This document shows positions 15,806 to 38,126 of a stretch of 64,000 bases of DNA, piece by piece (position 1 is the stretch's first letter; each line of letters starts with the position of its first letter). This DNA is from a virus, in IMG/VR virus record IMGVR_UViG_3300032291_002123, positions 38,066 through 102,065 of that record. One strand, given 5' to 3'. The notes under the pieces are model-generated. The model made no database searches, was not told the DNA's origin, and saw only the letters and a list, made by a program, of their open reading frames with translations. Both the position numbers and the translations under genes were made by a program.

Positions 15806-15973
15806 CTTTTTTCTCCTTTTTAGAGGTCGGCAGCACTACCCCAAGCAAAGGGCCGCTGTTTTTCCACGCATTTTGTTTCTTTATTATGATTTTCTGTATA
15901 ACATAATACAAACCTCCATAAATAGCAAGCAATCCGAGCAGAGATAGCACGATAATTAGTTCCATTTGAGTTC

Positions 15974-16969
15974 CTAACTCCTAACCAATGTATTCGAGTA
16001 GATGTCTTTGACAACATTTGCCCAGATTCTAGGCGTGTGGGTCTCGGCTTGGTATCCGCCAGCCCCGCCAATCAACACTCGCCCCTTACAATGCTTGTTA
16101 GCAAGGTCAGCGACAACACTTGAAGCATAGCGGTAGCCATCGTAGGTGTATTTCAAGCCCCAGCCCTCGCCCTCGTGTCCATCTGCCCCTGTTGCGAGCA
16201 GAATTACATCAGGCTCATACTCGTCAATCTTTTCGGCAATCAGGTCAATAGCCCAAGCCAACGCCTCGTCGCCCTCTCCTCGCTGTAAGTTGAAGTTATA
16301 CCAATGCTTGTCAGGGTCAGAGTATTCGTAGTTGCCTAGGTCATCCATCCCTCGCAACCAAGTGTCTGAGTGAACAGGGTAGACTCCGTGTCCGTGAATC
16401 GAGAAGGTGGGTATGTCCGTATCCTCTAAGAGATTCTGAACGCCGTCGCCAGCGTTTACATCCCAATCGATGTAGGCAACTTTCAAGCCAGCCTTACGAA
16501 ACTCTTTCGCAGCCCAAGCGAAGTCATTGAATACACAGAAGCCCTCAGACCAGCCGTATTGTGCGTGGTGTTTAGCACCCTGTGGATTGAAGCCAACCTG
16601 AGTTTCGCCAGCAATCATTTTCTCAACAAGGCGAGCAGTTCCAGCGAACATCTGAAAGGCGGTGTTGCCCATCTCTGTGCGCTTTCCATCCCAATCGTGA
16701 GACACTCCCTTATCAATTACCTCGCTCACGAACTTAGGGTCGTGGATAGTCTCCAACGCCTCCCTATCGCCATCACGGATTTCGGGTTCGATAATCTCCA
16801 CATTATCCGCACCAAGTTCCTCGGTAATGTATTGGGTAGCCAACTTAGCCCTAATCGGTTTCGTAGGGTGCGAGCCATCGCCAGAGCCTAACTGCCATTT
16901 GAGGTAGTCGTCGCTGTAAGCGATTGTTAGTTTATTTGGGTATGTCAATCTGTCCTTTTTTTCTTTCAT
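15974..16969 (-). CDS. Histone deacetylase / AcuC-family Zn-dependent deacylase
   Basis: HP.KP.R, GAKHHA...GFCVFND, YIDWDVNAGDGVQ, SIHG, GADGH, GGAGGY. Confidence 0.9.
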   Translation of the reverse strand: MKEKKDRLTYPNKLTIAYSDDYLKWQLGSGDGSHPTKPIRAKLATQYITEELGADNVEIIEPEIRDGDREALETIHDPKFVSEVIDKGVSHDWDGKRTEMGNTAFQMFAGTARLVEKMIAGETQVGFNPQGAKHHAQYGWSEGFCVFNDFAWAAKEFRKAGLKVAYIDWDVNAGDGVQNLLEDTDIPTFSIHGHGVYPVHSDTWLRGMDDLGNYEYSDPDKHWYNFNLQRGEGDEALAWAIDLIAEKIDEYEPDVILLATGADGHEGEGWGLKYTYDGYRYASSVVADLANKHCKGRVLIGGAGGYQAETHTPRIWANVVKDIYSNTLVRS

Positions 16970-17240
16970 CGTGTTTCTAAGTTATCAAATAAACTAGAAA
17001 AAGTCAAGTTTTGCGTGGAAAATCCTTGACCCTTTGTAATAAGCCTTATGTAATAACTTAGTCTCCGAGGTGTTCGTGCCTATCGTGCTTGTTCAGCCAA
17101 TCGGTAAGCCAGAATAAGCCAGCCAGCATTATGACGATAGAGCCAATAACAGCACCAAAAATTAGTAGAGTTTCCATAGCCATAATCTAGCATAAAAGAA
17201 ACCCCCTGACATAAGTCAAGGGGTCGTGTCTTTTTAGGGT

Positions 17241-17486
17241 CTAGCCCTCCACAGAAGCCTCATAGAAAGGCGGAAGTGGTTGAGTTGATGCCAGAGCCTT
17301 GCCGAACTTTTCTATCGCCAAGCAGGTGTCAGCAATCCAAGTGTCGTAAAGCACCTTGTCCACACCTGAGTGGGCTTCGTTCTTTTTTGCTTTCAACTCG
17401 GTAAGCGAGAACAAAAGAACGCTTTTCATAAATTGTAGTTCTTGGGTCTCGAACTCTACTGAGGTTGAGGTTTTTGTTTCTGTCAT
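17241..17486 (-). CDS. Hypothetical protein
   Basis: RBS, co-oriented, followed by a hairpin at 17201-17224. Confidence 0.65.
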   Translation of the reverse strand: MTETKTSTSVEFETQELQFMKSVLLFSLTELKAKKNEAHSGVDKVLYDTWIADTCLAIEKFGKALASTQPLPPFYEASVEG

Positions 17487-17500
17487 TTCTTTCTCCGTTT

Positions 17501-17929
17501 CTAGTTGTTTTTGTTGTTTAGGTAGTTGATGTAGCCGTCGCTGTTGATTTCTGCCTGATACTCGTCGGCATACACCCTCGGGTTAGTTTCTACTCTTGGG
17601 TAAGCACAGGTAGAGCAAAGGTCGTAGTCGATGTCAATCCCAACTCCGCAAACGCACTTGCGCTCCTCCAACTCCTCGGGTTCGGGTTCGATGTCTCGGG
17701 TATCGCCCTCGTCGATAATCGGGTTAGCCAATCGCTCTCGCTCATACTCCTCACCCTGAGCAACTCCAACCTCGTAGCCCGTGTCATAGGCGAGGTCGAA
17801 AATCATACGGGTGTTGTAGAGGTGTAGGTATGGTTCGGTCTTGTTATACCAATCCCAGAACGCAGCCTCTCGCACTCGTGCTTTTCGGGTGCTTACATCT
17901 AGGAAAGCGTTTACTTCGTCTTGTGTCAT
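17501..17929 (-). CDS. Hypothetical protein (CxC...CxxC)
   Basis: AAAGGA RBS; acidic; Cys pairs. Confidence 0.65.
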   Translation of the reverse strand: MTQDEVNAFLDVSTRKARVREAAFWDWYNKTEPYLHLYNTRMIFDLAYDTGYEVGVAQGEEYERERLANPIIDEGDTRDIEPEPEELEERKCVCGVGIDIDYDLCSTCAYPRVETNPRVYADEYQAEINSDGYINYLNNKNN

Positions 17930-18283
17930 TTTTGTCCTTTCTACAATACTAGGTTAGTCCGTGTCGAAGTGTTTGTCAAGTTCACTCGCCAAATAATTTA
18001 CGGCAATCGCAAGAATTAGGAAACACCCACCGATTAGCAGATTTGAGAATACAAGAGCATAACCAAAAGTTCCGCTAAACAGGATTGCCAGAGCAACTCC
18101 TCGAAGTAGGATTACCAATCCCTCCCGATTGTTCTTGCTCACTTGTTCCTCTGCGGTCTGCTCTTGGCGATTTGATTTATAGCCCAAGCAAAAGCCAACG
18201 CCCCAGATACAATCAGCCCAATAGCAGCCACTAAAAGTAGTTCTCTCATTTTGTCCTTTCGTCGTTTCTATGTTAGCACATTA

Positions 18284-18550
18284 TCACAGATAAGGCAACA
18301 TACCAAGCCGTCTCGACAATTCTGCCTCACATTGCGTTGAGAGGTCGCCAAAGACCTCCTCAGCGTTCGGGATAGTTCCTGACCTGTCTAGGTAAGTAAT
18401 CCCAGCGATAAGGCTCACGAGAGTGTTTACCGAGAACTCAATCTCATTGTCAAAGTCTAAAAATCCAGCGGTGAAGTTGTCGTTCACTCGATTGACAAAG
18501 GCGACGATTTCGTCGTCTGTCATTTCGGTAATGCTTTTTTCGGCAGCCAT
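18284..18550 (-). CDS. Hypothetical protein
   Basis: GAAAGG RBS; co-oriented. Confidence 0.6.
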   Translation of the reverse strand: MAAEKSITEMTDDEIVAFVNRVNDNFTAGFLDFDNEIEFSVNTLVSLIAGITYLDRSGTIPNAEEVFGDLSTQCEAELSRRLGMLPYL

Positions 18551-18661
18551 AGTAAGCCTTTCTTTGTTTATTATTTTAGCAGATTATTCTGCGTGGAAAA
18601 TCCCCTACCCTTTACGACAGAGCCGAACTCTCGCTCGGCTTGTCGGTGGGTGGGTGTATCC

Positions 18662-18880
18662 TTACCCGAAAAGATTTTTCCAGCAGGGTGGGCAATACCC
18701 TGATTGGAAACGCTCACGCTGGTCGGCGGTGAGATTAGGGAAAGCGTTTTGTATCAACGCCCCCTGATTGTAATCGAACAGGTTCTTGGAACTGACCTCA
18801 ACCTGAATAGTTCCCTCACACTTAGGGCAAGGCTTAGAGGTTGCGAGATACTCGCCCTCTTTGATTTTCTCGAACTTCAT
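18662..18880 (-). CDS. Small zinc-binding hypothetical protein
   Basis: CPKC...IQNAFPNLTADQRERFQSGYCPPCW; AAGGAG RBS. Confidence 0.7.
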   Translation of the reverse strand: MKFEKIKEGEYLATSKPCPKCEGTIQVEVSSKNLFDYNQGALIQNAFPNLTADQRERFQSGYCPPCWKNLFG

Positions 18881-19042
18881 TTTGCTCTCCTTTTTATTTT
18901 CTAACTAAACACGAACTCGGTAAACTCGCCAAGCGAGATTTCGCCACGGATAAGTTGCCATAGCAAAAGTGTCTGCCTCTTTTTTCGTAGCGAACTGATA
19001 AGGCTGAACACCTTGACCACGAACCTCAATAACCCAAATCAT

Positions 19043-19531
19043 TTACACCAACTCCTGTTCATCTTGTAAAACCACAAGCGAGACCACGCCTCGCTCTTTG
19101 ATTGGGTAGAACCCATACTGACCACGAGCAAAGTGGTAGTAGACATTAGCCAACTTGTAGCCCTTGCTCTCGTAGAACTTTTGCTGTTTGCCGTAAGAAT
19201 TAGCAACCGAAACATTGACCCACGATACAGAACCATCTGGGTTGTTTACTCGCCACACCTTGCCATACTTGCCGTCTACAATTTTTGCGTCTACGACATT
19301 ACCCTCCAAGTCGAGCAAAGCGTTTTCGTAATCAACGCCGTGATTGCGAGCCAAGCGAGCCTCACGGATGTGTTCACGATACATACCCTCGTGATAAAAA
19401 GCGTAGCCGTCGTTATCCAAAATACGCTGTTTGTCTAACTCAACAGCGTGAGCGTTCTGCTCACACTCGACAGCGTGAGCCTCCCACTCTTGTGGCGAAA
19501 CTCCCTCACGATACCAAATCGAAACTGACAT
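19043..19531 (-). CDS. Hypothetical early protein
   Basis: Own hybrid promoter and GAAAGGAG RBS. Confidence 0.7.
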   Translation of the reverse strand: MSVSIWYREGVSPQEWEAHAVECEQNAHAVELDKQRILDNDGYAFYHEGMYREHIREARLARNHGVDYENALLDLEGNVVDAKIVDGKYGKVWRVNNPDGSVSWVNVSVANSYGKQQKFYESKGYKLANVYYHFARGQYGFYPIKERGVVSLVVLQDEQELV

Positions 19532-19583
19532 TTGTATCTCCTTTCACTAAAATAGTATCAAAGACTACTGACATTTGTCAAGT

Positions 19584-20033
19584 CTAAAAGCCATTGTTTT
19601 TCGCACAGACAGGGCCGATACCCTCGGCAACGCTCTTAGGGTCTGTCAGGAAAATACCGCAGACACAGCACATACCTGTTTCCATACCAAAAGCCTTAGC
19701 CTGTTCCAGCGACATTTTGTGTTCTGGTTTTAGGCGATAGATAGCCCCAGCCTCATACTCGAAACCGCCCTCTAATGCGTTCAGTTTCTTAGCGTAAAGA
19801 CGGCTACTCATTTTGCTCGGGTGAACTCGGTAGATGTCGCCGTTCGGCATACGATACATACCAACCTCGCCGACAATTCCAGCAGCCCGAGGTGCTTTTA
19901 GTAGCGAACCGATTAGGTCGCTAGCGTCTTTCGAGGTGAGAACCTCAAAGTTGATTTCCTCGCCATTGTAGACACGCTCGGTTAGGAGTTTCTCGATGAA
20001 CTCCACCTGTCGAACTGATACCTTGTTAGCCAT
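19584..20033 (-). CDS. DUF6011-like zinc-ribbon protein
   Basis: GMCCVCGIFLTDPKSVAEGIGPVCA C-terminus. Confidence 0.75.
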   Translation of the reverse strand: MANKVSVRQVEFIEKLLTERVYNGEEINFEVLTSKDASDLIGSLLKAPRAAGIVGEVGMYRMPNGDIYRVHPSKMSSRLYAKKLNALEGGFEYEAGAIYRLKPEHKMSLEQAKAFGMETGMCCVCGIFLTDPKSVAEGIGPVCAKNNGF

Positions 20034-20263
20034 TTGCTATCCTCTCTCTCTTACAACTAAAAGATAGCACACCCCCCTGACATTTGTCAATTCCTATTAG
20101 GCGTGTCGCTTATGTAATTATTTTGCCAGGCGGTTGCTAGGCTGCCTCGCTCAAAGGGTGGGGCTTTTTCCACGCAAAACCAGCCAAAAATAAAAGATAG
20201 TTAGCGTAAGTAATAAAAAAAGAACCTTGCCTCTCGGCAAAGTTCTTTTTCGTGTGGTTCGGT

Positions 20264-20497
20264 TTACTCCTGCGAAAGTCGCTCGTTCATTAGAGCCAAG
20301 ACCTGTCGGCTGTGAGCCAGCACTTCGGTAAGCCTCTCGACCTCGCTGTGTATTTTTAGGTCAATCACCTTTTGGGATAACTTGACCAATCCCTCCATAA
20401 TTTTTATCTGCTCTGCCATAGCCCATACGATAGCCTCTCGTGGTGCGTTGGCGATTGTGGTTTCCCACTCCTCAATCGAGGTTAGTTGTTTTGACAT
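20264..20497 (-). CDS. Hypothetical protein
   Basis: Start re-set to MSKQ after an AAGGAAG RBS; terminator at 20221-20250. Confidence 0.6.
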   Translation of the reverse strand: MSKQLTSIEEWETTIANAPREAIVWAMAEQIKIMEGLVKLSQKVIDLKIHSEVERLTEVLAHSRQVLALMNERLSQE

Positions 20498-20557
20498 AAC
20501 TTCCTTTGGTTGTTTCGGCAAGGGGGAGATGTTCTCAATCCCCCGAGCCAAGTTTTT

Positions 20558-20767
20558 TTATTTAGCGTTTGCCCAAGCAATCGCTTTGTTGATTAGAGGT
20601 AGGCAAGCCATAAAGACCAGCCAAGAGAAATACATCACGAGCAGGTTATCCCACACGCCAGCACTTCCCGGTTCCGCACCCAGAGCCATTAGCAATAGGT
20701 TTAGAACGACATAAGCCAGAAAAATTACAGGAAAGAAAATCGTTCCTCGAACTAATCGCTTTATCAT
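20558..20767 (-). CDS. Small two-TM membrane protein
   Basis: Two hydrophobic segments; GAAAGGA RBS. Confidence 0.65.
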   Translation of the reverse strand: MIKRLVRGTIFFPVIFLAYVVLNLLLMALGAEPGSAGVWDNLLVMYFSWLVFMACLPLINKAIAWANAK

Positions 20768-20813
20768 TTTTGTCCTTTCGACATTTCTAAGGTATCAAAC
20801 CACTCGGCTTTTG

Positions 20814-21098
20814 TCAAGCGTTGTAGTAAGACCAATTTCGGTGGATTTCCTCTTGCTCGTATTCACGAATACATCTCGCACAATGTTGCTCGTCGTCTTT
20901 CGTGCTGAAAGCAATTTCCTCACCGCAGTTCGCACAGCCCATTTCGGTAGGCGTAGGTTCGTGAGGTGCGTTTCCGTCTGCCTCCTCACAGATTGTTTCG
21001 TCGCCCCACACCTTGTCGCTAATCCAAATGCTCGGCGATACTTCTGTGATTACCTCTCCACAATGTAGGCACTCGTTTTTCTTGGTCATAGTTATCAT
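20814..21098 (-). CDS. Cys-rich hypothetical protein
   Basis: Several CxxC pairs; own TGTCAG-N10-TACCTT promoter. Confidence 0.6.
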   Translation of the reverse strand: MITMTKKNECLHCGEVITEVSPSIWISDKVWGDETICEEADGNAPHEPTPTEMGCANCGEEIAFSTKDDEQHCARCIREYEQEEIHRNWSYYNA

Positions 21099-21119
21099 CT
21101 CCTAATTTCTAAGGTAGCA

Positions 21120-21401
21120 CTACCTACTGACATACTCGGTTTCCAATACTTCTGTTAGTAGTCGGTCATAGTCGTATTCACCCAAACGGAAACCAGCCTC
21201 GACAATAATCTCTGCCAACTTCACGCCCAAGCCATCTGCGACAGATTGGATTACTTCGCTCGACATCTCTTTTACGCCACGCTCTACTTCGCTTAGGTAG
21301 CCGATAGAGACATTTGATTTGGCGGATAGTTGTCTTAGTGTCCAGCCTCTCTGCGTTCGTAGGTCTCGAACTACATCACCTACGGCAACTCGCAACATCA
21401 C
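21120..21401 (-). CDS. clgR: ClgR-like XRE-family transcriptional regulator
   Basis: LRVAVGDVVRDLRTQRGWTLRQLS....VSIGYLSEVERGVKEMSSEV closely follows the actinobacterial ClgR consensus (LRE.IGDVLR..R..QGRTLREVS..ARVSLGYLSEVERGRKE.SSE). Confidence 0.7.
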   Translation of the reverse strand: MMLRVAVGDVVRDLRTQRGWTLRQLSAKSNVSIGYLSEVERGVKEMSSEVIQSVADGLGVKLAEIIVEAGFRLGEYDYDRLLTEVLETEYVSR

Positions 21402-21805
21402 GACCAAACACCAGCCAAATACTTTTCGGCGGCTAGGTTTGCCTTTTCAGCAAAATCGATTGCCACATCTAGTTCGTGAAAAGGTTCGCTGAACCACTCG
21501 GTATCTGTTTCGTGTAGAACTACGAACCAAGAATTATTTACCCAACAAAAAACTTCCTCGTCTTTGCCAGACCAATCGCTAAGTTCCTTGTCGGTCTTGA
21601 TACCGAACTCCTCTAACTTATCGGTGTAGCGGATTACTTCGTCGTGTCCATTTTTATTCACAGCGTTGATACGCATTTCACCCTCACGATAAACCGCAAA
21701 AGGATTGTCCTCGCTTGACCACACCAATTCAGTTCCAACTTCGTTGGTGTAGAACGCACTATCCTGTCGCTTTGGGTCAGTTCCGTATTTCGTCAGTTTT
21801 GTCAT
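21398..21805 (-). CDS. Hypothetical protein
   Basis: AAGGAG RBS; translationally coupled to the ClgR-like gene. Confidence 0.65.
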   Translation of the reverse strand: MTKLTKYGTDPKRQDSAFYTNEVGTELVWSSEDNPFAVYREGEMRINAVNKNGHDEVIRYTDKLEEFGIKTDKELSDWSGKDEEVFCWVNNSWFVVLHETDTEWFSEPFHELDVAIDFAEKANLAAEKYLAGVWS

Positions 21806-21991
21806 TTTGTTTTTTCTCCTTATAGATAGAACTTGTCGTCAAACTTTTGCGAGGATAAAAGTCGAAACTCCACTAACTTTTTTCCATTTAGTTTTGACCG
21901 AACGATTTTTTTCTCTGCGTGTTTCTGCGTGTTGGCGATAAGCGATACTTGTCGTATTCGTGGAACGCCGATGATTTCGTAGGTGTAGAGG

Positions 21992-22270
21992 TTAGCCACT
22001 ATTGATACCCCTCTCGGTGAAAATCTCCAAGTGATAGTTCTCCAAGAGGATTGACGCAGGGGCTTGGTTAGAGCCAGCAACGCTGTATCCACTCGGCAAC
22101 TCAATCAACGCCTCTGGGTTGCCAGCGATAGTTTCCTCAACTGCTTTTAGGCAAGCAGGGTAGAGAACCTCGTTGATTGGCTCATAGAAATTGGTTGATA
22201 GGTGTAGCGAGATTTTCTTGTCTAATGGCAAATCGCTAGTTGCTATGCCTATGGCATTTATCAATCCCAT
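21992..22270 (-). CDS. Hypothetical protein
   Basis: GAAAGGA RBS; HL..NFY.PI...C..A...HL motif. Confidence 0.65.
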   Translation of the reverse strand: MGLINAIGIATSDLPLDKKISLHLSTNFYEPINEVLYPACLKAVEETIAGNPEALIELPSGYSVAGSNQAPASILLENYHLEIFTERGINSG

Positions 22271-22318
22271 AATTGTCCTTTCGTCTTTTTCATCTCTTAC
22301 CTAATTAGGTTATCAGGT

Positions 22319-22537
22319 TTATTGCTCTGTGTCAATCTCGGTAGAGTTCGGCACTTGTCCTACAAAGGTCAGCATAGGACCTGCGTAGGTTGGGTCGTTC
22401 ACGAGGTTCGAGAAATACGACACGAGTTCCTTAGAACTCTCTGCCACAAACTTGACGGCACTCGCCTCGTCTGTGATTGTGCCAGACTTCTCGACCTCGA
22501 ATACGAACTCGACATTTACTTTGTAAGTTTCAGCCAT
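22319..22537 (-). CDS. Hypothetical protein
   Basis: Co-oriented, RBS. Confidence 0.6.
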   Translation of the reverse strand: MAETYKVNVEFVFEVEKSGTITDEASAVKFVAESSKELVSYFSNLVNDPTYAGPMLTFVGQVPNSTEIDTEQ

Positions 22538-22580
22538 TTTATTTCCTGCTTTCAGTTGGTTCTATTTTACACCAACTGCC

Positions 22581-23063
22581 TTATGTGATTAGTGAGTTTA
22601 GGTGAATACGAGCATCAAGGTAGATGTCCTCGTTTTCTCCTTCTCCAACGCTCTCCCACTCCTCGCTTTCCTTGTTCCAAACATCAGCACTACCAAACAA
22701 AGCCTCTGCTCTGTCGTCGTCTAGGAAAGTAATAGTTGGCTTGCCGTTGTTCATCTCTACCGCAACCACGAAATAAACCTGCTTGGTGTCTGGGAAATCC
22801 ATACCAAACAGACTTTCGAGGCTGTCGTATTGGTCAAGATTTTCATCAAGCCACTCCTCGAACTCCTTGGTGTATTCGGTATCGGTGATTAGCCAATTAC
22901 CATCATTGTAAGAATTATCCTTGCTCAATTCCAGCCATTGTTTAGTTCCTCGCCAGAGGAACGCAACACTTCGCTTTTGATTGTCGGCGTAGTCCTCAAC
23001 GCTTTTGATTTCTACATCTGGGATAAATGCGTTGTTGGGTGTTGCGTAAATGTCGTATGTCAT
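22581..23063 (-). CDS. Acidic hypothetical protein
   Basis: AAGGAG RBS; coupled to the upstream ORF. Confidence 0.65.
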   Translation of the reverse strand: MTYDIYATPNNAFIPDVEIKSVEDYADNQKRSVAFLWRGTKQWLELSKDNSYNDGNWLITDTEYTKEFEEWLDENLDQYDSLESLFGMDFPDTKQVYFVVAVEMNNGKPTITFLDDDRAEALFGSADVWNKESEEWESVGEGENEDIYLDARIHLNSLIT

Positions 23064-23590: not shown

Positions 23591-23738
23591 TTGTATCCTT
23601 TCTACATTACAGAGTATGCCACACACCCCTGACATTTGTCAAACTCAAAGGGTAGCGAGTTTTCCACGCAAATCCACGCAAAAAAAATAAAGCATAAAAA
23701 AGCACCCCGACTTTCGTCGGGGTGGGAAGCGACTTATC

Positions 23739-24062: not shown

Positions 24063-24390
24063 CTTTATCAACTCCTTTCCGTGGGACCCCCACATTTTTA
24101 TTATGTCATAGACCCCTGACATTAGTCAAGTCTATCGCTCGTTGTCTTTTGCGACAGCGATTTGGATTTCGATTAGGGCTTCCTCGGCGTTTATCTCTCG
24201 TGCTTCAAATCGGTCAAGGATTGCCACAAACTCGGCAGCAAGTAGTTCGTTCATTTTTCATCACCTCTCTTACAAAGAAAGTATCGCACCACCCCCTGAC
24301 ATAAACAATTTTTAGAAGGGTAAGGGATTTTCCACGCAAATCCAGGCAAAAAAGAAACCCCGTGCTTTCACACGGGGCTTCCTTTTGTGG

Positions 24391-24996: not shown

Positions 24997-25208
24997 AGTC
25001 AGCCTACCTTTCCTTGCGTTAGTACTTGGCTGTGTTTTGTCTTGGTTCTCCCAAATCGGTATTCAGTTGTGTTCCAATTCTACACCCAAAACGACTTGAC
25101 AAACAAGATAGTATGTGAAAGATTGTCGTCCTGGAACATTGGCTAAATTGCGTGGAAAATAAAGCACCCTTGTAAAAATCACCCCCGAGCGTGTGTCGGG
25201 GGTTGGGG

Positions 25209-25594: not shown

Positions 25595-26038
25595 TGGAAA
25601 CCAACTCCTAACTAACTACTGAAAACGAACTTTATTTACGAACTGCTTTGCGAAAGCAACGAACTTCTTGACCAACTTCTCGCCGAACTCGTAAACCTTG
25701 TCGCCGGGAGATTTGTAGAAACCAACTTCTGCTTGTTCAGCAGCCAAGAACTCAGCACCAGAGCGATAAACACCCATAACCAATCACCACCTTTCCCTTA
25801 CATACAAAGTATGACATAGACCTACGACATTTGTCAAGTCCTGAGCAAACTATTTTTCCGTGTCGTTTCGGCGCTCGCTTATACCACCACCCCCTGACAT
25901 CAACTAATCTGTCGCATAAGAAATAACCCCACTAAGTAATTTCCGGGCAGCGGCGTGCGTGCGTGGAAAATTGGCTACCCTTTCCAAATCGGCAAAAAAA
26001 AACCGAGCGATTTCTCGCTCGGCTCTTTTACTTCCTCT

Positions 26039-27104: not shown

Positions 27105-27518
27105 TACAACTCCTTTCCTACATCTATAAGGTAGCACTAGCCCCCGACATTTGTCAAGTTTATTCCCAATCTTTTTTAGCGTTTCGCTTTACTGATTGGC
27201 GAGTTTTTAGTCGGCGAGTTCTCCTATCGGCGTGAGTTCCATTAGCACCCGAACGATTACGCTCTCGCAACAGAACGGATAGGGCGAACGCCTCGACATT
27301 ACGCCGAGCCAAGTTTGTTCGGTTCAGTTTCATCTCTCTCTCCTTTCACTTTTAGAATACAGCATACCTCTGACATCTGTCAATGTCCAAAGGGTAGCCC
27401 TTTTTCCACGCAAATCACGCTAAAAAAATAAGCGACCTGGTATCGCATAAGACTTTCTGTTTGTCAAGTCGGCAAGAAAAAAGCCGAGATTTCTCTCGGC
27501 TCTCTCTGTCGGTATCGC

Positions 27519-28245: not shown

Positions 28246-29082
28246 TTTATTTCTCCTTTTCTCTCCAACACTTTTACTATACTGCTAGCCTCTGACACTC
28301 GTTCGGCGGTCTATCTCTGTCGGGCAATACTCGACGGGAAAGCCAGCGTGGTCGTGCGACCACAATCCGTCAAGCACGAGATACGACGAGGTGATACGCA
28401 ATCCGCACTCGGCACATTCGCCGAACCACACACGATTATCTTTTCGGTATCCATCTCCGGGATTTAGAACCGAGAAGTTTGTGCCTAATCCTTTTTCCCG
28501 GATTGACTTCACATTTATTTCTGTCATTTCATCTCTCCCTATCCCAAGTGGATAAACGCCCGAAACTTTTTCTCGCAATTCCAGCAAAGGATTTTGCCAG
28601 ACCAACTCGTGATGAACTTTGGTTGCTTTTTACCGAACGATACTCCGCACTTTTCGCACTTGCTAGCACTCAACGATTTGTGGTTCACGAACGAAATTGC
28701 CATTTGATTTCTCCTAATCTTTCCGACACTTTTAGGGTATACCCACCCTCTGACACTCGACCTACTCGCTGTCGAAAATACAATGGCTACGAACCTCGAC
28801 CACGAAATCCTTGCCAGCGACTTTGCCACCGAACTCTTTTAGTCCGTAGACATAAGAACGAACCTCGACTTCGGTAAAGAACTCTCGCTCGATACCACTC
28901 GACAATTTGACAACCCACGACACAGCACCAACGCTCATAGTGCCTCCCTTCACTTCTTACGATACGGCAATTCTCCACTTATGTCAAGAGAAACGCCGTA
29001 AGTTTTTAGAAAGTTTTTTCGGCAAAGGGTCGGTGATTTTCCACGCACCAGAGGCAAAAAAAGATTGGAACTCTGCGACATA

Positions 29083-29218
29083 AGAAAATCCCCTATCACG
29101 AAAGGGGGGGGGGGTGTGATAGGGGATTTCTTTTACTATCGGGGGAGAACCTCGGCAGGTATGTTATCTAGAAAGGGGGGGGGATTAGATAACGGCGTTG
29201 AGGTCGTCAGCCCGATAG
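29083..29218 (-). ncRNA. 6C-like small RNA / 3'-UTR element: two hairpins with C9 and C11 loops
   Basis: gttatcta-atCCCCCCCCCtttc-tagataac nested in longer stems, then cccctatcac-aCCCCCCCCCCCtttc-gtgatagggg followed by a U-tract. Confidence 0.6.
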
Positions 29219-29226
29219 CCTCGGGG

Positions 29227-29972: not shown

Positions 29973-30226
29973 TTTGTATCTCCTTTCACTTCTGATTGTG
30001 CCAGAGTATCGAACTTTTGTCAAGTCTATTTTGACATTTTTCCAAACTTTTTTTCGGCGACCATCTCGATTTTTTTGTGTGTCAATTCCACGATACCAAG
30101 ACCCTCTGACATTGGGCGAAAGTCGTTTTGACATAAGCGAAAAGTATTTCCGGGATTAGCCCGGTTTTGCGTGGAAAATCGGCAACCCTTTACAAAAAAG
30201 GATTGGCTCTCGCCAATCCAATTTTG

Positions 30227-30985: not shown

Positions 30986-31207
30986 TTACGCATCCACGCT
31001 CTCTACCTCATACTCGGCGGTCTCGCACCAGTTCTTGAGAACTCGTGCCGTGTCGTCGCCGAACGAATCGCTGTCCTCTAAGTAATCGGCAATCGCCTCA
31101 AACTGCTCGGGGTTGTATGAAGTGTGTTCGGCAACCAAGAACTGAAATACAATCGGCTCGTCTGGGTCGAAAGTTTTCAGCAGGTCGATTAGTTTTTGAA
31201 CTGTCAT
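30986..31207 (-). CDS. Hypothetical protein
   Basis: MTVQKLIDLLKTFDPDEPI N-terminus; GAGGAG RBS. Confidence 0.6.
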   Translation of the reverse strand: MTVQKLIDLLKTFDPDEPIVFQFLVAEHTSYNPEQFEAIADYLEDSDSFGDDTARVLKNWCETAEYEVESVDA

Positions 31208-31379
31208 TTTGTCTCCTCTGTTTTCGGTTTTTCGTTATAGACATAAATTATGTCGGTGAAACAATCAACGCACTCAAGCCCTGCTGTTTCGTCGTATCGA
31301 AAGAACAATCGAACTGCGTGTCCTCGGTGGTCGGCAAGTTCGTCGTAAGTGATAGTTGCCTCGTCAAACTTCTGTGTCA

Positions 31380-31988
31380 TTAGTTCTCCTCCTTGAAGTA
31401 GTCGTAGATGCTGTATTCGCTGGCGTTCTCCCAGTCAATGCATCCATCCTCGTCGAGAGGAACTCCAAGCGACTTGTAGATGTCTGGGGTAATGTCTACA
31501 CACTCGTCGTCTAGTTCGCCATCCTCGATAAACGCACGACCTAGATAGCCAACGCCCTCCTCGGCGTAAAGGTTCTTGACCCGAATTGGATACTGCTCAC
31601 TTAGGGTTTGCCAGAATGGTAGAGCAGGAGACCACGCTGTCGAATAGCCAATCTCAAACTTGAACTGCTTGCCATCTGTTGTCGGCACAATCTTGGAAAT
31701 CTGCGTGGTATCAAAATCCAAATCCCACTTAGTTCCCCAGTTGCCTAGTCGCCAGTTATACCAGTTTGTGTAGGCATACTTGCGATTACCAGCGAGAGCG
31801 TTCATCCACTCTGTCTCGTCGTTAGCAGACTTACCTTTTCCAAAGTTCCTATCGCCCAAGCCCTCTGGTTGTGGAACTAACTGCTGAAACGAAAACGCTT
31901 GGTTATCATCTTTTGCTTTTGCGAGAATCGTCTCGAGAACTTCTTTATCTCCAACGACCTCAACTGTGTTGTCGCACCAATTTGGCAT
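31380..31988 (-). CDS. DUF1281/YubB ferredoxin-like domain protein
   Basis: MPNWCDN...WYNWRLGNWGTKWD...TAWSPA...YAEEG. Confidence 0.8.
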   Translation of the reverse strand: MPNWCDNTVEVVGDKEVLETILAKAKDDNQAFSFQQLVPQPEGLGDRNFGKGKSANDETEWMNALAGNRKYAYTNWYNWRLGNWGTKWDLDFDTTQISKIVPTTDGKQFKFEIGYSTAWSPALPFWQTLSEQYPIRVKNLYAEEGVGYLGRAFIEDGELDDECVDITPDIYKSLGVPLDEDGCIDWENASEYSIYDYFKEEN

Positions 31989-32045
31989 TTACATCATCTC
32001 CTCAATCTTGATTGTGCCATAGTTTGTTTTGTTTGTCAAGTCCTG

Positions 32046-32234
32046 TTAGGACATTTTTTCCAACTCAACTCGTGAGTTCAGGTGATGCTCGAGAGACGAA
32101 ACCAAGTTGTCAATCTCTGGGTTCTGGTGCATCTGGTTGTAAGCCTTGATGAACCCCACCAACTTGAGTTGGGCTTTTACTTCTTTGCGAACCTTGATTA
32201 CTCGAAACAGTTTTTTCATTTTTATCTCCTCCAC
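32046..32234 (-). CDS. Hypothetical protein
   Basis: GGAGGAG RBS before the ATG at 32219. Confidence 0.55.
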   Translation of the reverse strand: MEEIKMKKLFRVIKVRKEVKAQLKLVGFIKAYNQMHQNPEIDNLVSSLEHHLNSRVELEKMS

Positions 32235-32401
32235 TTACGATTATGCCAAAAATAATCTCGCTTGTCAAGTTTTATTATTTCAGCGTGTCGCAGGTTCTTA
32301 TGCGATAACTATGACGCAGAAATCTCGACTCGCTCTGCGTGGAAAATTGGCGACCCTTTACGAAAAAACCCCAAGCGAACTTGGGGTGATTTCGATTTTG
32401 G

Positions 32402-32809
32402 CTATCGCCAGAACTCAGGGAGTTTTCGACTGAACGAGCCGGGGAACATAGTTTCCTCCTCGTATTCGATTCCAAAAATCTTGGTGAACGCCTCTCGCAC
32501 TTTGTCGCTGATGTCGAGCCACTCAGCGTAATACAACTCGCTCGTATTGCCCTCGTAGCCGGGAACTGCGTTCTCCTGCGTGTAGTCGCCAACGACCACG
32601 ACCCTATCGCCAGCCCAGCGACCAGATGCATCGGTCAGCGGAAAGTCGCCACCGCCAGATTCCGGGCTAATCATAGTCAGCAGATAAATCGCATCCGATA
32701 GTCCTCCGATGCTACCCGTATGCTCGAACTGCTTTCCCAGCAATCCGATTGCATAAGGGCTTACCTGTTCCTGCTTGTCTAGGTTTACGAGTTTGTGATA
32801 CTGACCCAT
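32402..32809 (-). CDS. Hypothetical phage protein
   Basis: MGQYHKLVNLDK...GRWAGDRVVVVGDY. Confidence 0.75.
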   Translation of the reverse strand: MGQYHKLVNLDKQEQVSPYAIGLLGKQFEHTGSIGGLSDAIYLLTMISPESGGGDFPLTDASGRWAGDRVVVVGDYTQENAVPGYEGNTSELYYAEWLDISDKVREAFTKIFGIEYEEETMFPGSFSRKLPEFWR

Positions 32810-32921
32810 CCGTTTATTTCCTTCCGTCTCTTTCGCTTGCCGTTTGGCAATCCGTTTACTACCTATTCAGTTTAGGGCATCTCTTGCCGTTTTGTCAAGC
32901 GTTAGGCTAGCCGTGTTTCGA

Positions 32922-34925
32922 CTAGCCGTTTCGCTTGCCAGCGGTTGTCAATGCTCGGGCCGCTGATTCGCCAATCATCGTCGAGATTGACCCTGCGGTT
33001 GCACCTCGCTTGATTTCGACATACACCGCATCCGTTCCTCTTATGTGATAAGGGATGAAGTCATTCCCACCACCCTCGAACCCGAGCCAGAGAACTGCCA
33101 CGCCGTTCCGTTGGCACGAGGCTAGCCAATGCTTTACCTGCTCTCGTTCCTCCTGCGTGTAGTATCCGTCAGACACAATCACGAGCAGTCTCGCACCCGA
33201 GCCGTGAAGTAGATTCATCGAGCCGTCAATCGCCTTGAACGCCTTGCCGAACTTCTCGGTGTTGTCTCGTGCCGTATACACATTCACATCGGTGAGGTGC
33301 TGTCCCGGCTTGAGAGTGGCGAACACATCGTTGCCGTAGTAGACCATAGATGCCTTGCCGTGAACTCGTCGAACTGCCTCTGACATAACCCAAGCGGTAG
33401 TCGCCATTGGTTGCATCGCCTCGCCCATCGAGCCAGAGATGTCCACCATAATTCCGACATTCAGTTCTGGGTTGTCTGTGTGCTTGCGCTTGGTCGCTCT
33501 CCAAGGTTCGACCTTGGCATTGACACCATTCGCTTTATAGGCTGCTCTCTGAACCATCGCACGAGAACGCAGACGACCTACTGGCAACTCGCTCGTAATC
33601 TCGACCTGCGAACGCTCACGATACTTTGCCTTCTCGAGCAGTCGTGCAACACGAACTGCACTCGCTCGTTCCTCGCCAGTTGGTTTACGAACCTCGACCA
33701 GTTTTGAGTTGGTTGCTAATCCATCAGAAGGACCTGTGCCACGACCAAACACTTCAGTCGCAACATCCTTGTGCTGTTTCGCCTCTTTCGCTGAATCTGC
33801 CTTGTCCTTGGCAATCTCTTTCCACTCCTCTGATTCAATCTGTTCCTCTGCATCAGAACGAGATGAAATCTCGGCGTTGTCCTTTGCCTCGTTCAAGGCA
33901 TCGAGCATCTCTTTGATAAGGTCTTGCTCGGCAGAAGTTGAACCTGAACCAGAACCTGAATCAGAACCCTCCTCTGATTCGCCAGATTCTGAATCGCTAG
34001 AACCTGAACCTGAACCAGTCTCACCAGATTCTGAATCGCCAGATTCTGATTCGCCAGAACCAGAACCAGTCTCGCCAGTTGGAGATGGAGTTCCTGAACC
34101 AGATTCTGATTCGCCCTTCTCACCAGTCGGCGATGGAGTTGGGTGGCAACCGGGGTGAGGTGAGTTTCCAGTCTCGCCCTTTTCTGCTTTTGTCTCGTTG
34201 ATAACTTTGACCCACTCACGAGCGAGGTCGTAAAGTTTTGTCGCATCAGCGTGAAGGTCGTGCGCTTGGAACTCAATCCAAATCGCACGAAGTTTTGCAA
34301 CGACATCTGCACCAAGAATCTTTTCGAGAACAGGAACAACAGGTTCGACATCACTCTCGTCAAGAACACCTGCATCAACTCGAGCGAGGGTTAGAGCAGC
34401 GAGGAAAGATGCACCTGCAACATTAGTAATCTTTGCAACTTGGTTTTCCAAATCTGCAACCACGATGTGCAACGCAGATGAACGCAGAAAAACTTTGTTC
34501 TTTGGATTCGTGCGAATACCAAAAGCCTCGATACGACCCTCCTCCAAATTGAACAGCGCACCAAACTCGTCTCGAGTTAGTTCTGCTTGTGCTTGTTCGA
34601 TTGACCAGCGTGAGAATCGAGCGTGGAGTGCCTCGTGGAAAATTGCGCCAGTCGCAACTGGGTGAGCAAGTTGATTGATTCGCTTAGTGAGGTCTCCAAC
34701 CTCGGCAGGTTCGATGTTGCCAAAAGCAACTTTTGTATTTACTTCAATCTCGGCACTTCGTGGTGAGAACGCAGCCGGGGCACCAGACACAGTTGTCTCG
34801 CCCAAGTTCACTACTAGGTCGTTTCGGAACGACCAGTCATTGACCAGCGCACCAATCTGCGCCCCTGCTCGTAGCCATTCGCTAGGTGTTGATTTTCTTG
34901 TCTCGGCAATTCCATAGTGAGCCAT
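32922..34925 (-). CDS. vWA-domain protein with N-terminal HExxH metallopeptidase-like domain (CobT/vWA-MoxR partner)
   Basis: FHEALHAR...NLEEGRIE; long G/S/E linker; MIDAS DISGSM, T, VSDG. Confidence 0.85.
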   Translation of the reverse strand: MAHYGIAETRKSTPSEWLRAGAQIGALVNDWSFRNDLVVNLGETTVSGAPAAFSPRSAEIEVNTKVAFGNIEPAEVGDLTKRINQLAHPVATGAIFHEALHARFSRWSIEQAQAELTRDEFGALFNLEEGRIEAFGIRTNPKNKVFLRSSALHIVVADLENQVAKITNVAGASFLAALTLARVDAGVLDESDVEPVVPVLEKILGADVVAKLRAIWIEFQAHDLHADATKLYDLAREWVKVINETKAEKGETGNSPHPGCHPTPSPTGEKGESESGSGTPSPTGETGSGSGESESGDSESGETGSGSGSSDSESGESEEGSDSGSGSGSTSAEQDLIKEMLDALNEAKDNAEISSRSDAEEQIESEEWKEIAKDKADSAKEAKQHKDVATEVFGRGTGPSDGLATNSKLVEVRKPTGEERASAVRVARLLEKAKYRERSQVEITSELPVGRLRSRAMVQRAAYKANGVNAKVEPWRATKRKHTDNPELNVGIMVDISGSMGEAMQPMATTAWVMSEAVRRVHGKASMVYYGNDVFATLKPGQHLTDVNVYTARDNTEKFGKAFKAIDGSMNLLHGSGARLLVIVSDGYYTQEEREQVKHWLASCQRNGVAVLWLGFEGGGNDFIPYHIRGTDAVYVEIKRGATAGSISTMIGESAARALTTAGKRNG

Positions 34926-35060
34926 TTAGCCACCAGTCCTTTCATCTCTACTTCTCAATTATTGCAAAATCTCTGACTAATGTCAAGTCCTTCTTTGGTG
35001 TGTCTGGGGCGATGGGATTGGAGACCACCACCCCAGACGAACACGAATCTAGGGAAGGAA

Positions 35061-36071
35061 CTAGATTCGTGCTGGCTTGACTTCCTCGCCGAACGCACGA
35101 CTGAAAACATCGGCAACGACTGGTCTGTCAAGTTCTGGTGCGCTAGCAAGCAAGTTGCTAATCGCAAACGAAGTTCCGAACAACTCGGCGAGGTCTCGGA
35201 AAGCGAGAACTTCACGCATCTGCGGAGACCACGACACTTCATCACTCGCTTGCTTTTTCGCAAGATTCTGGCTGGCAGTAATCACAACAGCAGGAACGCC
35301 CAACTTACGAGCGATAGTCCAGTCAGTAGTCATTTCTGCTTGAACAGAGAATCGAGAGAGCAACGCCTCGGAGAGAACAACTCCCGGTGCATTGGGGTTC
35401 GTTGCACTAACCACAAAGAATCCATCCTTGGCTTTTACTGTGCCACGCTCCGGGTTTTGAGTGATAGTGATTTCACCACGACCATCCATTAGTCCATAGA
35501 CCAACGAAAGAACTTTCGGGTCTACCAAACCAATCTCGTCAATCAGGAGAACTTTACCCTCCTCGACTGCACGAACGAGAGGACCATCAATCCACTCGAA
35601 CCCACCACTTGCAGTCTGAACATAACCACCAACGAAGTCTGCAACTTCGGTGTCGCCAGTTCCAATGACTGTGTAGAGGTCGTCGCCAAAAGCAGCCTCG
35701 AGCATCGCAGTCTTACCAGTTCCCGGTGCGCCATAAAGCAGAACATACTTCTTGGCATCACGAGACTTGCGAATCACTTCGATGTCGGCGTGTTCAGTAT
35801 TACCCCACTTGCGAGAAGTGTAGGTCTCACCATTAGGTCGAACATAAACTCCTTCACCACTAAGTGCCTCTGCCACGATGGTTTTCACCCTCTTTGTAGT
35901 TCCTGAATTGTCTCGCACACGAATGACTGCACGACCAGATGCCTCGTCGAAAAACTTGTCAAGCGATGCATCTAATTCTGCATTTAGTTTTTGACCACTA
36001 ACTGCAAACAGAGCCTCGGAAAGTTCTTTCGAGAATCGTTCTTGGTCGATAATTACTTGTTGTCTATTCAT
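35061..36071 (-). CDS. MoxR/CbbQ/CobS-type AAA+ ATPase
   Basis: GAPGTGKT, DGPLVRA, LLIDEI, ATNP, LSEALLSRF. Confidence 0.9.
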   Translation of the reverse strand: MNRQQVIIDQERFSKELSEALFAVSGQKLNAELDASLDKFFDEASGRAVIRVRDNSGTTKRVKTIVAEALSGEGVYVRPNGETYTSRKWGNTEHADIEVIRKSRDAKKYVLLYGAPGTGKTAMLEAAFGDDLYTVIGTGDTEVADFVGGYVQTASGGFEWIDGPLVRAVEEGKVLLIDEIGLVDPKVLSLVYGLMDGRGEITITQNPERGTVKAKDGFFVVSATNPNAPGVVLSEALLSRFSVQAEMTTDWTIARKLGVPAVVITASQNLAKKQASDEVSWSPQMREVLAFRDLAELFGTSFAISNLLASAPELDRPVVADVFSRAFGEEVKPARI

Positions 36072-36086
36072 TGTAATCTCCTCCTA

Positions 36087-36587
36087 TTACGCTGATACTG
36101 CTACTGAATTGAAAAGTGATTCGCCCCACGAGAGTGCTTTACGAGAACGCTCGATTCGACGATAGAGACCATTCGGAGTTTTTCCGTCTCGAATGTTTGC
36201 CAAGTCCTCGTAAGAAAACTCAACTGCGAGTGGTCGCTGATACAAAGTCCAACCTTGTGCATACAACTGATTGAACTGGTGAGCGATTGCGCTAACATTC
36301 TGCCCAGCGTGTTCTTGTGCTTGGTCGAGTTCCAATGGCTCGAACTCACCATAAGCATCACGAGATGGTGCTGGATAAGTTAGTGGGCCATTGTTCTTGT
36401 CGATTGTCCAGTTTCGACGAGGGTGGTAAGTAGAGATTCGTCTGCGTAGGTTTGCAAACGGAACTACTTCATTCTCCAGCGTGATTGCCCAAGGGGTGAT
36501 AATCATCTGGTAGGTGTATACATCCTTGCGGAACTCCAAGTAGAGTGCCTTCCCGGCTGCATCCTTTTTGGTTTTTAGAGTTGTCAT
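36087..36587 (-). CDS. Hypothetical protein
   Basis: First gene of the AAA/vWA operon; RBS and TTGACT promoter. Confidence 0.7.
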   Translation of the reverse strand: MTTLKTKKDAAGKALYLEFRKDVYTYQMIITPWAITLENEVVPFANLRRRISTYHPRRNWTIDKNNGPLTYPAPSRDAYGEFEPLELDQAQEHAGQNVSAIAHQFNQLYAQGWTLYQRPLAVEFSYEDLANIRDGKTPNGLYRRIERSRKALSWGESLFNSVAVSA

Positions 36588-36665
36588 TTTTTCCTTCCTT
36601 CTAACTCTTACTTACTAATTGAAACATAGTTTGATTCAAAAGTCAAGCGTGTCGCCAAACTTTTT

Positions 36666-37115
36666 TTAGTCAATTCGTGAATCTGCATAAGCCTCGATGC
36701 CAATCGCATTTAGGTGCTGAGATACTCCTCGAGCGACTTGCTCTTTGAGTTGTAGCGACTGTCGAGTTTGAGCGAACCCTTTACCATCGACCCAGAACTG
36801 CACGCCCTTGTAGCCACCACCCCATTGGTAGTGCTTGTATCCTTTACCAGTTTCGAGAATCCACTTAGCGAACGCAGAACGCCCATTCGGAACTACGACC
36901 CAAGCGAACCCACAAACTCCATCTGCTACGAAGTAGGTTTTTTTAGAGTAGTCGATGTCATTCCCGAGGGGAGTGGTTGGTGAACCCACAATCATAGGAG
37001 TGGGTGGAGTGGCTTTTGCCAATGCCTCGTGCGATACACGCTGGAGGTCTAGCCAAATCTGCTCGAACTTGCGCTGATTGGCAACGCTGACTTTTGCTTT
37101 TTTAGTGGTTGTCAT
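36666..37115 (-). CDS. Hypothetical phage protein
   Basis: GVCGFAWV...QSLQLKE...A...L...GI.....SRID; hybrid promoter. Confidence 0.75.
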   Translation of the reverse strand: MTTTKKAKVSVANQRKFEQIWLDLQRVSHEALAKATPPTPMIVGSPTTPLGNDIDYSKKTYFVADGVCGFAWVVVPNGRSAFAKWILETGKGYKHYQWGGGYKGVQFWVDGKGFAQTRQSLQLKEQVARGVSQHLNAIGIEAYADSRID

Positions 37116-37186
37116 TTTGTCCTTCCTTCTACTCTCTTATTATTGCATACACCTCTGACACTTGTCAAGGGTATTTTTAGGTGTGT

Positions 37187-37438
37187 CTAATCGCTGACTA
37201 TCTCGTAGCCCTTCTTGGTTTTTTTATCTACGAGGTCGTCGATGAAAATCGAGGCGAGGAACTTGCTATCAAAAGTGTGCTGTTTTTGCTGTCGTGAATA
37301 CCACATCTCTGCTCGACCCCAACTAACTTGAACGACTGACTTACCACTCGACACTTCAAAGAGGTCAACCACATAACGCTTTTTGAACCCCCAGTCGCCT
37401 CGTGCGCCTTGGGAGGTTGCTTCCAAAATAATCTTCAT
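37187..37438 (-). CDS. WGR-domain protein
   Basis: KKRYVV...VQVSWGRAE...KTKKGYE; start re-set to MKII. Confidence 0.65.
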   Translation of the reverse strand: MKIILEATSQGARGDWGFKKRYVVDLFEVSSGKSVVQVSWGRAEMWYSRQQKQHTFDSKFLASIFIDDLVDKKTKKGYEIVSD

Positions 37439-37479
37439 ACTCAGAGTATGGCAAAAAAATTGGCAGATGTCAAGTTTGT

Positions 37480-37710
37480 TTATAGAACAGGCGTGGCGCA
37501 CTCAGCGCAGACAATCCATTCAGCCTCGTCGTCCAGACATACAACGAATGCGACGAAGCCAGCGTCAGTGCTGCCCACTTGCTCGTGGCATTGCTCGCAC
37601 GACTCGTCGTCGAAGATGTCGAGTCCCACTGCGTTACCAGCGTCGACGTCGTGCGGTTCTTCAATCAGGTGCATCTCGATGTGTCTCATGTTTATAGGAT
37701 AAAACATCAT
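37480..37710 (-). CDS. Cys-rich hypothetical protein
   Basis: CEQC...CAEC. Confidence 0.5.
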   Translation of the reverse strand: MMFYPINMRHIEMHLIEEPHDVDAGNAVGLDIFDDESCEQCHEQVGSTDAGFVAFVVCLDDEAEWIVCAECATPVL

Positions 37711-38126
37711 CCGTTACGTGATTTGGACGTTGCTGCTACACGTCTGGTGCGAGTCATCCGTTTGCTGCGGCTGACTGTAGCATAAGCGTAAGTCGCACCC
37801 GTTGCTTGCTGAGCAGCGTCCCCGTCACTGGCTACGCAGCAATCCCTTGCCGTCATCGCATGCCGTTATGTAATTCCCAGCGCAGCGGGAGTCATCCATC
37901 AACGTGCGTGGAAAATCAGGCACCCTTTGGTGGCACGCCGTTGCTGCGTGGAAAATCAGGCACCCTTTGGCTCGCCGCTGCGAGAAGACATCCGTTATCA
38001 CTTACCGTTATGTAATAAACTCGCCAGGCTCCACACCAGGTGGGACACCAGGCTCGCCGCTGGTCATCTGTAACACAAGCCGTTATGTAATTAACAGCGC
38101 TGCGGGTCTCTTGGTCGTTTCGGTTC

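Follow-up and report, generated by a model that had tools for sequence, protein, structure and literature searches.

A gapped 24-bp box between the early transcription units of a freshwater actinophage: a candidate operator-like boundary element

What is the role of a short, gapped sequence that recurs in the gaps between the small early genes of a phage, faces either way although the genes around it all face one way, and is found nowhere else in the record? The question is raised by a 64,000-nucleotide stretch (the window) which comprises bases 38066-102065 of the 102,065-bp IMG/VR phage record IMGVR_UViG_3300032291_002123 (G000 in the following), estimated to be 76% complete. Between positions 15847 and 37970 the window contains a compartment of about 55 small minus-strand genes arranged in about 13 units, and the gaps of this compartment carry copies of the 24-bp bipartite box TGCGTGGAAAA-N6-ACCCTTT. 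Based on the comparison of sequences, we see about an even chance that the boxes are operator-like boundary elements, with one factor docking at every unit boundary.

Copies of the box and their position in the gaps

The window was searched for TGCGTGGAAAA-N6-ACCCTTT with up to 2 mismatches permitted and with shuffled sequence as control. The pattern search resulted in 14 copies in the window (8 plus, 6 minus), all of them within 15.8-38.0 kb. The chance expectation is 0.01 copies, and 14 copies were never reached in any shuffle. The original prediction, derived by inspection of the window, had listed fourteen boxes with their strands and spacers, and these were reproduced exactly. It had also restricted the boxes to the compartment and called for a genome-wide scan; the pattern search of the whole 102,065-bp record found no further copy. 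11 of the 14 boxes are exact, and the remaining three deviate by one mismatch each, namely the copies at 15847 (GCCCTTT), 24315 (ACCCTTC) and 25149 (ACCCTTG). The spacer measures 6 bp in all 14 copies. A scan of G000 with a weight matrix built from related sites gave a bimodal score distribution, with 14 sites at 27.8-37.3 bits and the next best site at 13 bits. In a logo derived from 40 sites of 7 related contigs, GCGTG and CCC are invariant, and spacer and flanks stay below 0.4 bit. As sequence and logo show, the two arms do not form an inverted repeat; arm 2 in reverse complement reads AAAGGGT and is unlike arm 1 (TGCGTGGAAAA).

Neighbouring boxes are 0.67-5.6 kb apart, mostly 0.7-2.2 kb, in agreement with the usual spacing of 0.7-2 kb given before. 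The tandem pair noticed at the right boundary (37905/37945) proved to be a perfect 26-nt duplicate with a distance of 40 bp and the same spacer, TCAGGC. Tandem or inverted pairs are found in G000 as well as in the related sequences G001, L019 and G004. Furthermore, 5 of the gene-sense boxes are preceded, about 10 nt upstream, by a weak additional copy of arm 1 (GCGTGGATT and similar).

Searches outside the phage returned little. Among 185,579 species genomes the exact box gave 17 single matches in unrelated phyla, none of them actinobacterial, which were taken as chance, and in IMG/VR it gave 4 single matches, 3 of which proved to be relatives. No match was obtained by megablast against phage records, no Rfam family overlaps any box, and a literature search on the box word retrieved primers only.

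The compartment is bounded by the endolysin gene (38127-38894) at one end and by the genes of a double helix-turn-helix (HTH) protein and the terminase (12898-15190) at the other, and its gene content and unit order vary among relatives. Read in gene direction, the order within a gap is a hairpin with a T-run, then a box in either sense, then a host-type promoter. All 14 boxes lie between convincing minus-strand genes. Weak open reading frames (ORFs), which contain a terminator or lack a ribosome binding site, overlap only 4 boxes (15847, 24315, 25149, 29024), and with this qualification the boxes are always intergenic, as had been proposed. A hairpin with a T-run precedes 10 of the 14 boxes by 7-43 nt, and sigma70-like promoters are located 4-66 nt beyond the box in most cases; the earlier description of boxes placed typically between a terminator and the next promoter is thus supported. 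The orientation of 8 of the 14 boxes is opposite to that of all genes, and these copies lead directly into terminator hairpins. The promoters of the compartment, about a dozen, belong to one class, TTGACAaATGTCAGGGGgtg...cATACT. Since several promoters of this class carry no box (19570, 24118, 25826, 27146, 37157), the box is not merely a promoter part.

Position statistics were calculated for 97 boxes of the family described below and for shifted control positions. A canonical terminator ends 7-47 nt upstream (mode 15-16) of 39% of the boxes, compared with 2.3% of the controls. TTGAC[ATG] is found on the gene strand within 10 nt downstream of 15% of the boxes, compared with 1.3% of the controls and 1% on the other side, and this enrichment is equal in both box senses.

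Box versions in related phages

The portal protein shares 72% identity with that of DSL-LC01, a metagenome-assembled Actinomycetia phage from a lake (PMC10611076), and 55-63% with those of large Microbacterium phages. The public runs containing the stretch are lake-water metagenomes, and no RNA runs are listed among them. The terminase has 472 relatives in IMG/VR, and the exact box word retrieves related contigs from IMG/VR and metagenomes with about 70% DNA identity to the window. One of the relatives, G001 (79.7 kb), is collinear with G000; its homologous compartment carries 11 boxes (6 plus, 5 minus), two of which form a divergent pair at the upstream edge.

Four box positions are clearly orthologous between G000 and G001, and all four keep their sense. 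In alignments anchored on these boxes, 62 of 72 arm positions are identical (86%), but only 9 of 24 spacer positions (38%) and 80 of 240 positions of the 30-nt flanks (33%). Conservation is limited to the arms; the DNA around them cannot be aligned, and the spacer changes as the flanks do, at background level. Over the family, box sense differs in 7 of 26 pairs at orthologous places, which indicates that orientation is free in evolution, too. Sense is concordant in 19 of 26 pairs assigned by the downstream gene and in 20 of 34 pairs assigned by the upstream gene, without a clear difference.

Inspection of orthologous gaps, e.g. upstream of the HDAC-like gene, revealed that the box is a member of a family in a clade of freshwater actinophages, with at least five lineage-specific versions. 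Type A is TGCGTGGAAAA-N6-ACCCTTT of the present phage and G001; type B is ACATGGAAAA-N6-ACCCTT (G007, G008); type C is TGCAT(G/A)GAAAAA-N6-RCCCAGG (G004 and many others); type D is GGGGTGGAAAA-N6-CCCCTG (L072, L083, L088); and type E is CGCTTGGAAAA-N6-ACCCCTTT (G013). Types A-E share the core GGAAAA-N7-CCC in the same geometry. The centres of the two blocks are 11.5 bp apart, so that both lie on the same helix face. About 20 boxes were counted in each of the complete genomes G004 (135 kb) and G013 (133 kb), in both senses and almost all in the homologous compartment; inverted pairs with a distance of 30 bp are frequent in G004. The five arm versions occur among phages whose terminases are 81-89% identical, and each version is uniform within its genome. 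Boxes were not found in G006 (complete), G012 (90% complete), G009-G011 and DSL-LC01, the last of which uses a different, one-directional promoter word instead.

Candidate readers and rival explanations

Recognition by a protein that contacts two consecutive major grooves would account for conserved arms, a neutral spacer and free orientation. If the boxes are operator-like boundary elements, they would be the recognition sites of one sequence-specific DNA-binding factor reading two blocks on the same helix face, GGAAAA and CCC, with the 6 bp between them left unread and with lineage-specific bases outside the core. The site would lie in DNA that is not transcribed, after the terminator of one early unit and ahead of the next unit's promoter, and terminator, box and promoter would together constitute a boundary cassette. 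The likeliest job of such cassettes would be coordinate control of the approximately 13 early units by one protein that docks at each boundary and is probably encoded by the phage and evolving together with its site. The docked protein may block polymerase reading through the terminator, keeping the units insulated, it may turn the adjacent strong promoters off or on together, or it may do both. The uniformity of the box within each genome and its divergence between lineages suggest that the reader is encoded by the phage and co-evolves with the box, and they make a host protein less likely. An RNA element does not fit: little of the gap is transcribed, transcription would yield the complement of half the copies, and Rfam has no matching family. 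The former statement that the box is neither a promoter nor an RNA element agrees with arms that are kept while spacer and flanks drift, with flipping orientation and with the Rfam result.

Several observations weigh against the boundary element. 85% of the family boxes are not directly beside a -35. No single steric model is fixed, because the distances to terminator and promoter both vary; a tight roadblock geometry in particular is not supported by hairpin-to-box distances of 7-47 nt. Moreover, the binder was not found: the recognisable DNA-binding proteins that were tested either occur in box-less relatives or are patchily distributed. This negative result is the main weakness of the explanation.

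Among the candidates is the double-HTH protein (14642-15190, minus; 182 aa, basic), which is encoded just upstream of the large terminase and has a paralogue at 11098-11601 (minus). It contains two sigma70 region-4-like HTHs (PF04545, 35.9 bits; helix SRERIRQI), both invariant in 21 relatives. As a reader of the box it is disfavoured by its presence in the box-less G012 and G009-G011 and by recognition helices that are both invariant across types A-E and the box-less genomes. A comparison with the solved TipsytheTRex repressor gave no sequence match. The protein may function as a small terminase or as a late regulator that mimics sigma. The ParB-like 502-aa protein (47479-48987) is 79-80% identical in G004 and in the box-less G006. 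Both proteins had been suggested as binders, and both fail the phyletic test, being well conserved in box-less relatives. Of the originally proposed binding array for a phage protein, the array itself is consistent with arm-only conservation and free orientation, but the proteins named for it are not supported.

Other candidates fared no better. The ClgR-like XRE protein (21120-21407) occurs in the box-less G012, and its recognition helix does not vary with box type. Protein p57 (27160-27333, minus; 57 aa, pI 12), which occurs with box types A, B and E and is missing from type C, and two Xis-like proteins are patchily distributed. The tail of p57 is arginine-rich, ADRRTRRLKTRQSVKRNAKK, like the arginine-rich motifs of N-type antiterminators. 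Two basic early proteins are encoded near the compartment edge. One of these, p149 (36666-37115, minus), is confined to type A genomes and has a confident non-HTH alpha/beta AlphaFold model (pLDDT 95) without PDB match. Its family comprises more than 700 representative sequences, none of them named, and the ESM Atlas returned nothing named. The other, p166 (36087-36587, minus), is universal, and its AlphaFold model (pLDDT 88) has no PDB match either. No AraC-family Pfam match was found among the compartment proteins or the other candidates. Only 4 proteins have a distribution that matches box presence, an HDAC-like enzyme and three acidic proteins, and these are unlikely to be DNA binders. The former is an HDAC-family deacetylase (15974-16969, minus; PF00850, E 3e-44) shared by all box-bearing relatives and missing from those box-less ones that were examined. 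There is a small chance that the boxes are orientation-free insulators read by a phage protein that lacks a known DNA-binding fold or is possibly delivered with the virion. In that case phages whose structural genes are nearly identical would have changed this specificity at least five times (types A-E), and the versions would represent a lineage-private 'boundary code' of apparently lytic phages, akin to the immunity groups known from temperate ones.

Instead of a phage protein, a host protein might bind the boxes, either an actinobacterial regulator or a nucleoid protein, which would wire the early units to the state of the host or would itself be titrated. The failure of every phage DNA-binding protein to match the box distribution speaks for this, as do neighbouring promoters that look like hybrids of the host PafBC type. 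However, a reader of fixed specificity would not predict five arm versions, each uniform within its genome, in phages with terminases as similar as these, the single matches of the exact word in the species genomes include no actinobacterial one, and we know of no actinobacterial site that matches the box; we therefore regard a host reader as unlikely. It is improbable, too, that the gene-sense boxes are promoters, or activator sites replacing promoters, for a phage-directed form of RNA polymerase that takes over after the host-type early promoters, with the opposite-sense boxes as by-products or drivers of short antisense RNAs. Such a role would suit the box after the HDAC gene, which stands in gene sense in G000, G001 and type C relatives, follows a terminator and is separated from the next ribosome site by 12-40 nt without a sigma70-like promoter between, and the phage encodes the 182-aa protein with its two sigma70 region-4-like HTHs. 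But this protein is also encoded in box-less genomes, 8 of the 14 boxes face against all genes into terminator hairpins, and sense flips at orthologous places. Furthermore, a 6-bp gap is unsuited to a -35/-10 layout, in which sigma70/sigmaA hexamers are directional and 16-19 bp apart, and no -10-like word occurs at a fixed distance from the box. Quite improbable, finally, is another DNA transaction marked by the boxes, such as site-specific single-strand nicks (as in T5 and phiKMV-like phages), replication starts or fork barriers. The sites are indeed asymmetric, bipartite and intergenic, and the nick sites of phiKMV-like phages have a variable middle; known nick sites, however, lie on one strand only, whereas the boxes use both strands, interleaved. 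The box is not known to fit a CRP/GlxR site, a sigma54 promoter, ECF and SigF-type promoters, parS, hix/res half-sites or MraZ repeats, and a DnaA box agrees in just 7-8 of 9 positions.

The second proposal made originally was that of tyrosine-recombinase or dif-like sites. More generally, the boxes might be linkers at which gene cassettes are exchanged, deleted and reordered by a site-specific recombinase or by homology. In support of this, the units between boxes differ strongly and change their order, as seen for the NlpC/P60, XRE and DUF6011 units in G000, G001 and L026, and the compartment resembles a hyperplastic region of the PeSL type (PMC2839356). A small serine recombinase (PF00239) is encoded in the complete relatives (G004:39321-39761, G013:12565-13005, G006:115199-115639), of which G006, however, is box-less. 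Tyrosine recombinases (PF00589) gave no match in G000, G001 or the complete G004, G013 and G006, whereas all control genomes matched. The arms are not inverted repeats of each other, and fixed arms with a free spacer are the opposite of the trace left by homology exchange or by a crossover region; exchange by sequence homology does not fit because it would homogenise the spacer as well. Breakpoints had been expected at the boxes, and a comparison of related genomes had been called for. In a lake-metagenome comparison made on contigs, two deletions (16933->18250 and 25078->25820), each seen in at least 2 lake runs, break 71-340 nt away from the nearest box, although only few such events are visible. 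The breakpoints at 25078/25820 are close to promoter-like TTGACAA/TTGTCAA words, and of the joint 24023->32359 the 27-nt side is probably just the repeated box. Between G000 and G001 flanking boxes persist where the genes inside the unit differ, and opposite-sense boxes never produced an inverted gene block. On these grounds the box does not appear to be a recombination site, neither of the tyrosine-recombinase type nor of another, and we assign little probability to recombination linkers.

Should a single factor read the boxes, it would provide a master handle on the host-takeover genes of very abundant uncultured lake phages. The five box versions in otherwise similar phages allow changes in a protein-DNA code to be studied as a natural experiment. 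The order of terminator, orientation-free box and host-type promoter may also be widespread among lake actinophages. In practice the use of the box is modest: it marks the compartment cleanly and can serve directly as a probe to isolate the regulator.

Individual gaps, other features and known systems

The boxes are numbered here along the window. Box 1 (15847-15870, minus; TGCGTGGAAAA ACAGCG GCCCTTT) has the same sense as the genes and is flanked by the HDAC-like gene and the gene of a 57-aa membrane protein. No sigma70-like promoter stands behind it, and a ribosome site and gene come next; its orthologue in G001 is located at 42379(-). Five further boxes share the gene sense. Box 4 (20153-20176, minus) has a terminator upstream (20216-20251) and a promoter downstream (20061-20090). 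Box 5 (23647-23670, minus) follows a terminator at 23703-23724, carries the half-repeat GCGTGGATT immediately ahead of arm 1, and the -35 of promoter 23613-23642 begins 4 nt past its arm 2. For box 6 (24315-24338, minus) the terminator is at 24358-24377 upstream and the promoter (24279-24308) 6 nt downstream, and for box 9 (27389-27412, minus) the terminator is at 27432-27446 and the -35 of promoter 27354-27383 lies 5 nt downstream. Box 10 (29024-29047, minus) is located downstream of a hairpin (29090-29107) and 36 nt upstream of promoter 28959-28987.

The opposite sense is found for the remaining eight boxes. For box 2 (17012-17035, plus), 4 nt separate the end of arm 1 from the -35 (TTGACT) of the HDAC promoter (16979-17007, minus), and place and sense of this box are kept in G001 and in types B, C and D. 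Four boxes stand 8 nt after a hairpin or terminator: box 3 (18590-18613, plus; hairpin 18622-18639), box 7 (25149-25172, plus; terminator 25181-25203), box 11 (30168-30191, plus; two-way terminator 30200-30219) and box 12 (32336-32359, plus; terminator 32368-32387, with promoter 32240-32268 downstream). Box 8 (25960-25983, plus) comes after a two-way terminator at 26003-26022. Boxes 13 (37905-37930, plus) and 14 (37945-37970, plus; spacer TCAGGC) form the tandem pair that closes the compartment on its upstream (right) side and is also present in the 91%-identical contig L014. The non-coding edge region around this pair (37700-38200) contains three CCGTTATGTAAT repeats and GGCTCGCCGCTG repeats, and it also holds further CCGTTA words. 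CTTATG/CATAAG words recur near several boxes, in this phage and in relatives.

The early promoters (14.5-37.2 kb of the window, minus; e.g. 23613-23642, 27354-27383 and 20061-20090) share TTGACAaATGTCAGGGGgtg-N-cATACT, and a TGACA-N2-TGTCA palindrome covers their -35. It is this promoter palindrome for which the ClgR-like XRE protein is more likely the natural candidate reader. The layout TGTCAGGG-N8-(c)ATACT of the early promoters is reminiscent of actinobacterial PafBC (RecA-NDp) promoters. Elsewhere, the window encodes a full-length tmRNA at 57777-58112 (minus; Rfam RF00023, 139.9 bits) with the tag peptide AESRSAFALAA, as well as tRNA-Leu(taa) and tRNA-Gln(ttg) at 55125-55198 and 55834-55905 (both minus). 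Auxiliary genes at 53446-53739, 59688-59918, 59918-61960 and 49410-50420 (all minus) encode a GroES-like Cpn10, a glutaredoxin, a ribonucleotide reductase and an N6/N4 DNA methylase. Outside the window, G000:1-5700 contains no ORF longer than 81 aa and no tRNA, and parts of it are conserved with G001 at the translated level.

Compared with known systems, the box shares its short spacer (6 bp) with tyrosine-recombinase core sites such as dif/pdif, attC and lox-type sites (6-8 bp), but not their inverted-repeat arms. The marbox, read by MarA, SoxS or Rob, is an asymmetric site of about 20 bp that is bound by a two-HTH monomer in either orientation upstream of promoters. Like the box, with cores 11.5 bp apart and both senses beside a -35, it consists of two blocks separated by one helical turn. 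It differs in sequence, in an orientation that depends on promoter distance, which is not seen for the box, and in its AraC-family reader, no protein of this family having been found in the phage. The OB sites of plasmid RK2 are 13-bp palindromes read by the ParB-family protein KorB. They resemble the boxes in being about a dozen dispersed copies on a mobile genome, at variable distances from promoters and served by one global regulator, but the ParB-like protein of the phage does not track the boxes. The CIRs of phage phiC31 are reportedly 17-bp palindromes bound by an oligomeric repressor in a temperate phage. They are highly conserved operator copies that, like the boxes, occupy intergenic positions within the early region of an actinophage, in several cases near terminators; they are palindromic, whereas the box is asymmetric.

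The surroundings of the box are closest to those of PeSL cassettes in T4-type phages, which consist of a promoter and a stem-loop, are thought to be recombination substrates, and whose exchange gives rise to indels and mini-circles (Arbiol et al. 2010, PMC2839356). In both cases small early genes lie between a strong sigma70-like promoter and a stem-loop terminator, in a region that shuffles its content. PeSL cassettes, which accompany non-essential early genes, have only promoter and stem-loop, whereas here a third, separately conserved and orientation-free box is placed between the two, and the breakpoints observed miss this box.

The box itself is best compared with the stoperators of Cluster A phages (L5 gp71; TipsytheTRex repressor, PMC9283540), in which, likewise, one asymmetric site recurs many times between the genes of an actinophage, in short gaps. 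The solved structure is that of a monomeric two-domain repressor reading an asymmetric site dispersed over the phage genome (PMC9283540). Stoperators are contiguous and 13 bp long, whereas the box has 24 bp with a 6-bp gap that is proposed to be unread. They occur genome-wide, late genes included, whereas the boxes are confined to 22 kb of the 102-kb record and, likewise, almost all to the homologous compartment in G004 and G013. Their orientation is tied to transcription, in contrast to 8 plus and 6 minus boxes among genes that are all on the minus strand. In the record, which is 76% complete, a homologue of the stoperator repressor was not recognised and no tyrosine integrase was found, and nothing indicates a temperate life style. 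In stoperators, one protein with two DNA-binding modules exerts global control of units, and the box is proposed to work likewise. By analogy, the box would act most like the dispersed operators of actinophages, set in a PeSL-like cassette landscape, while being a member of neither family.

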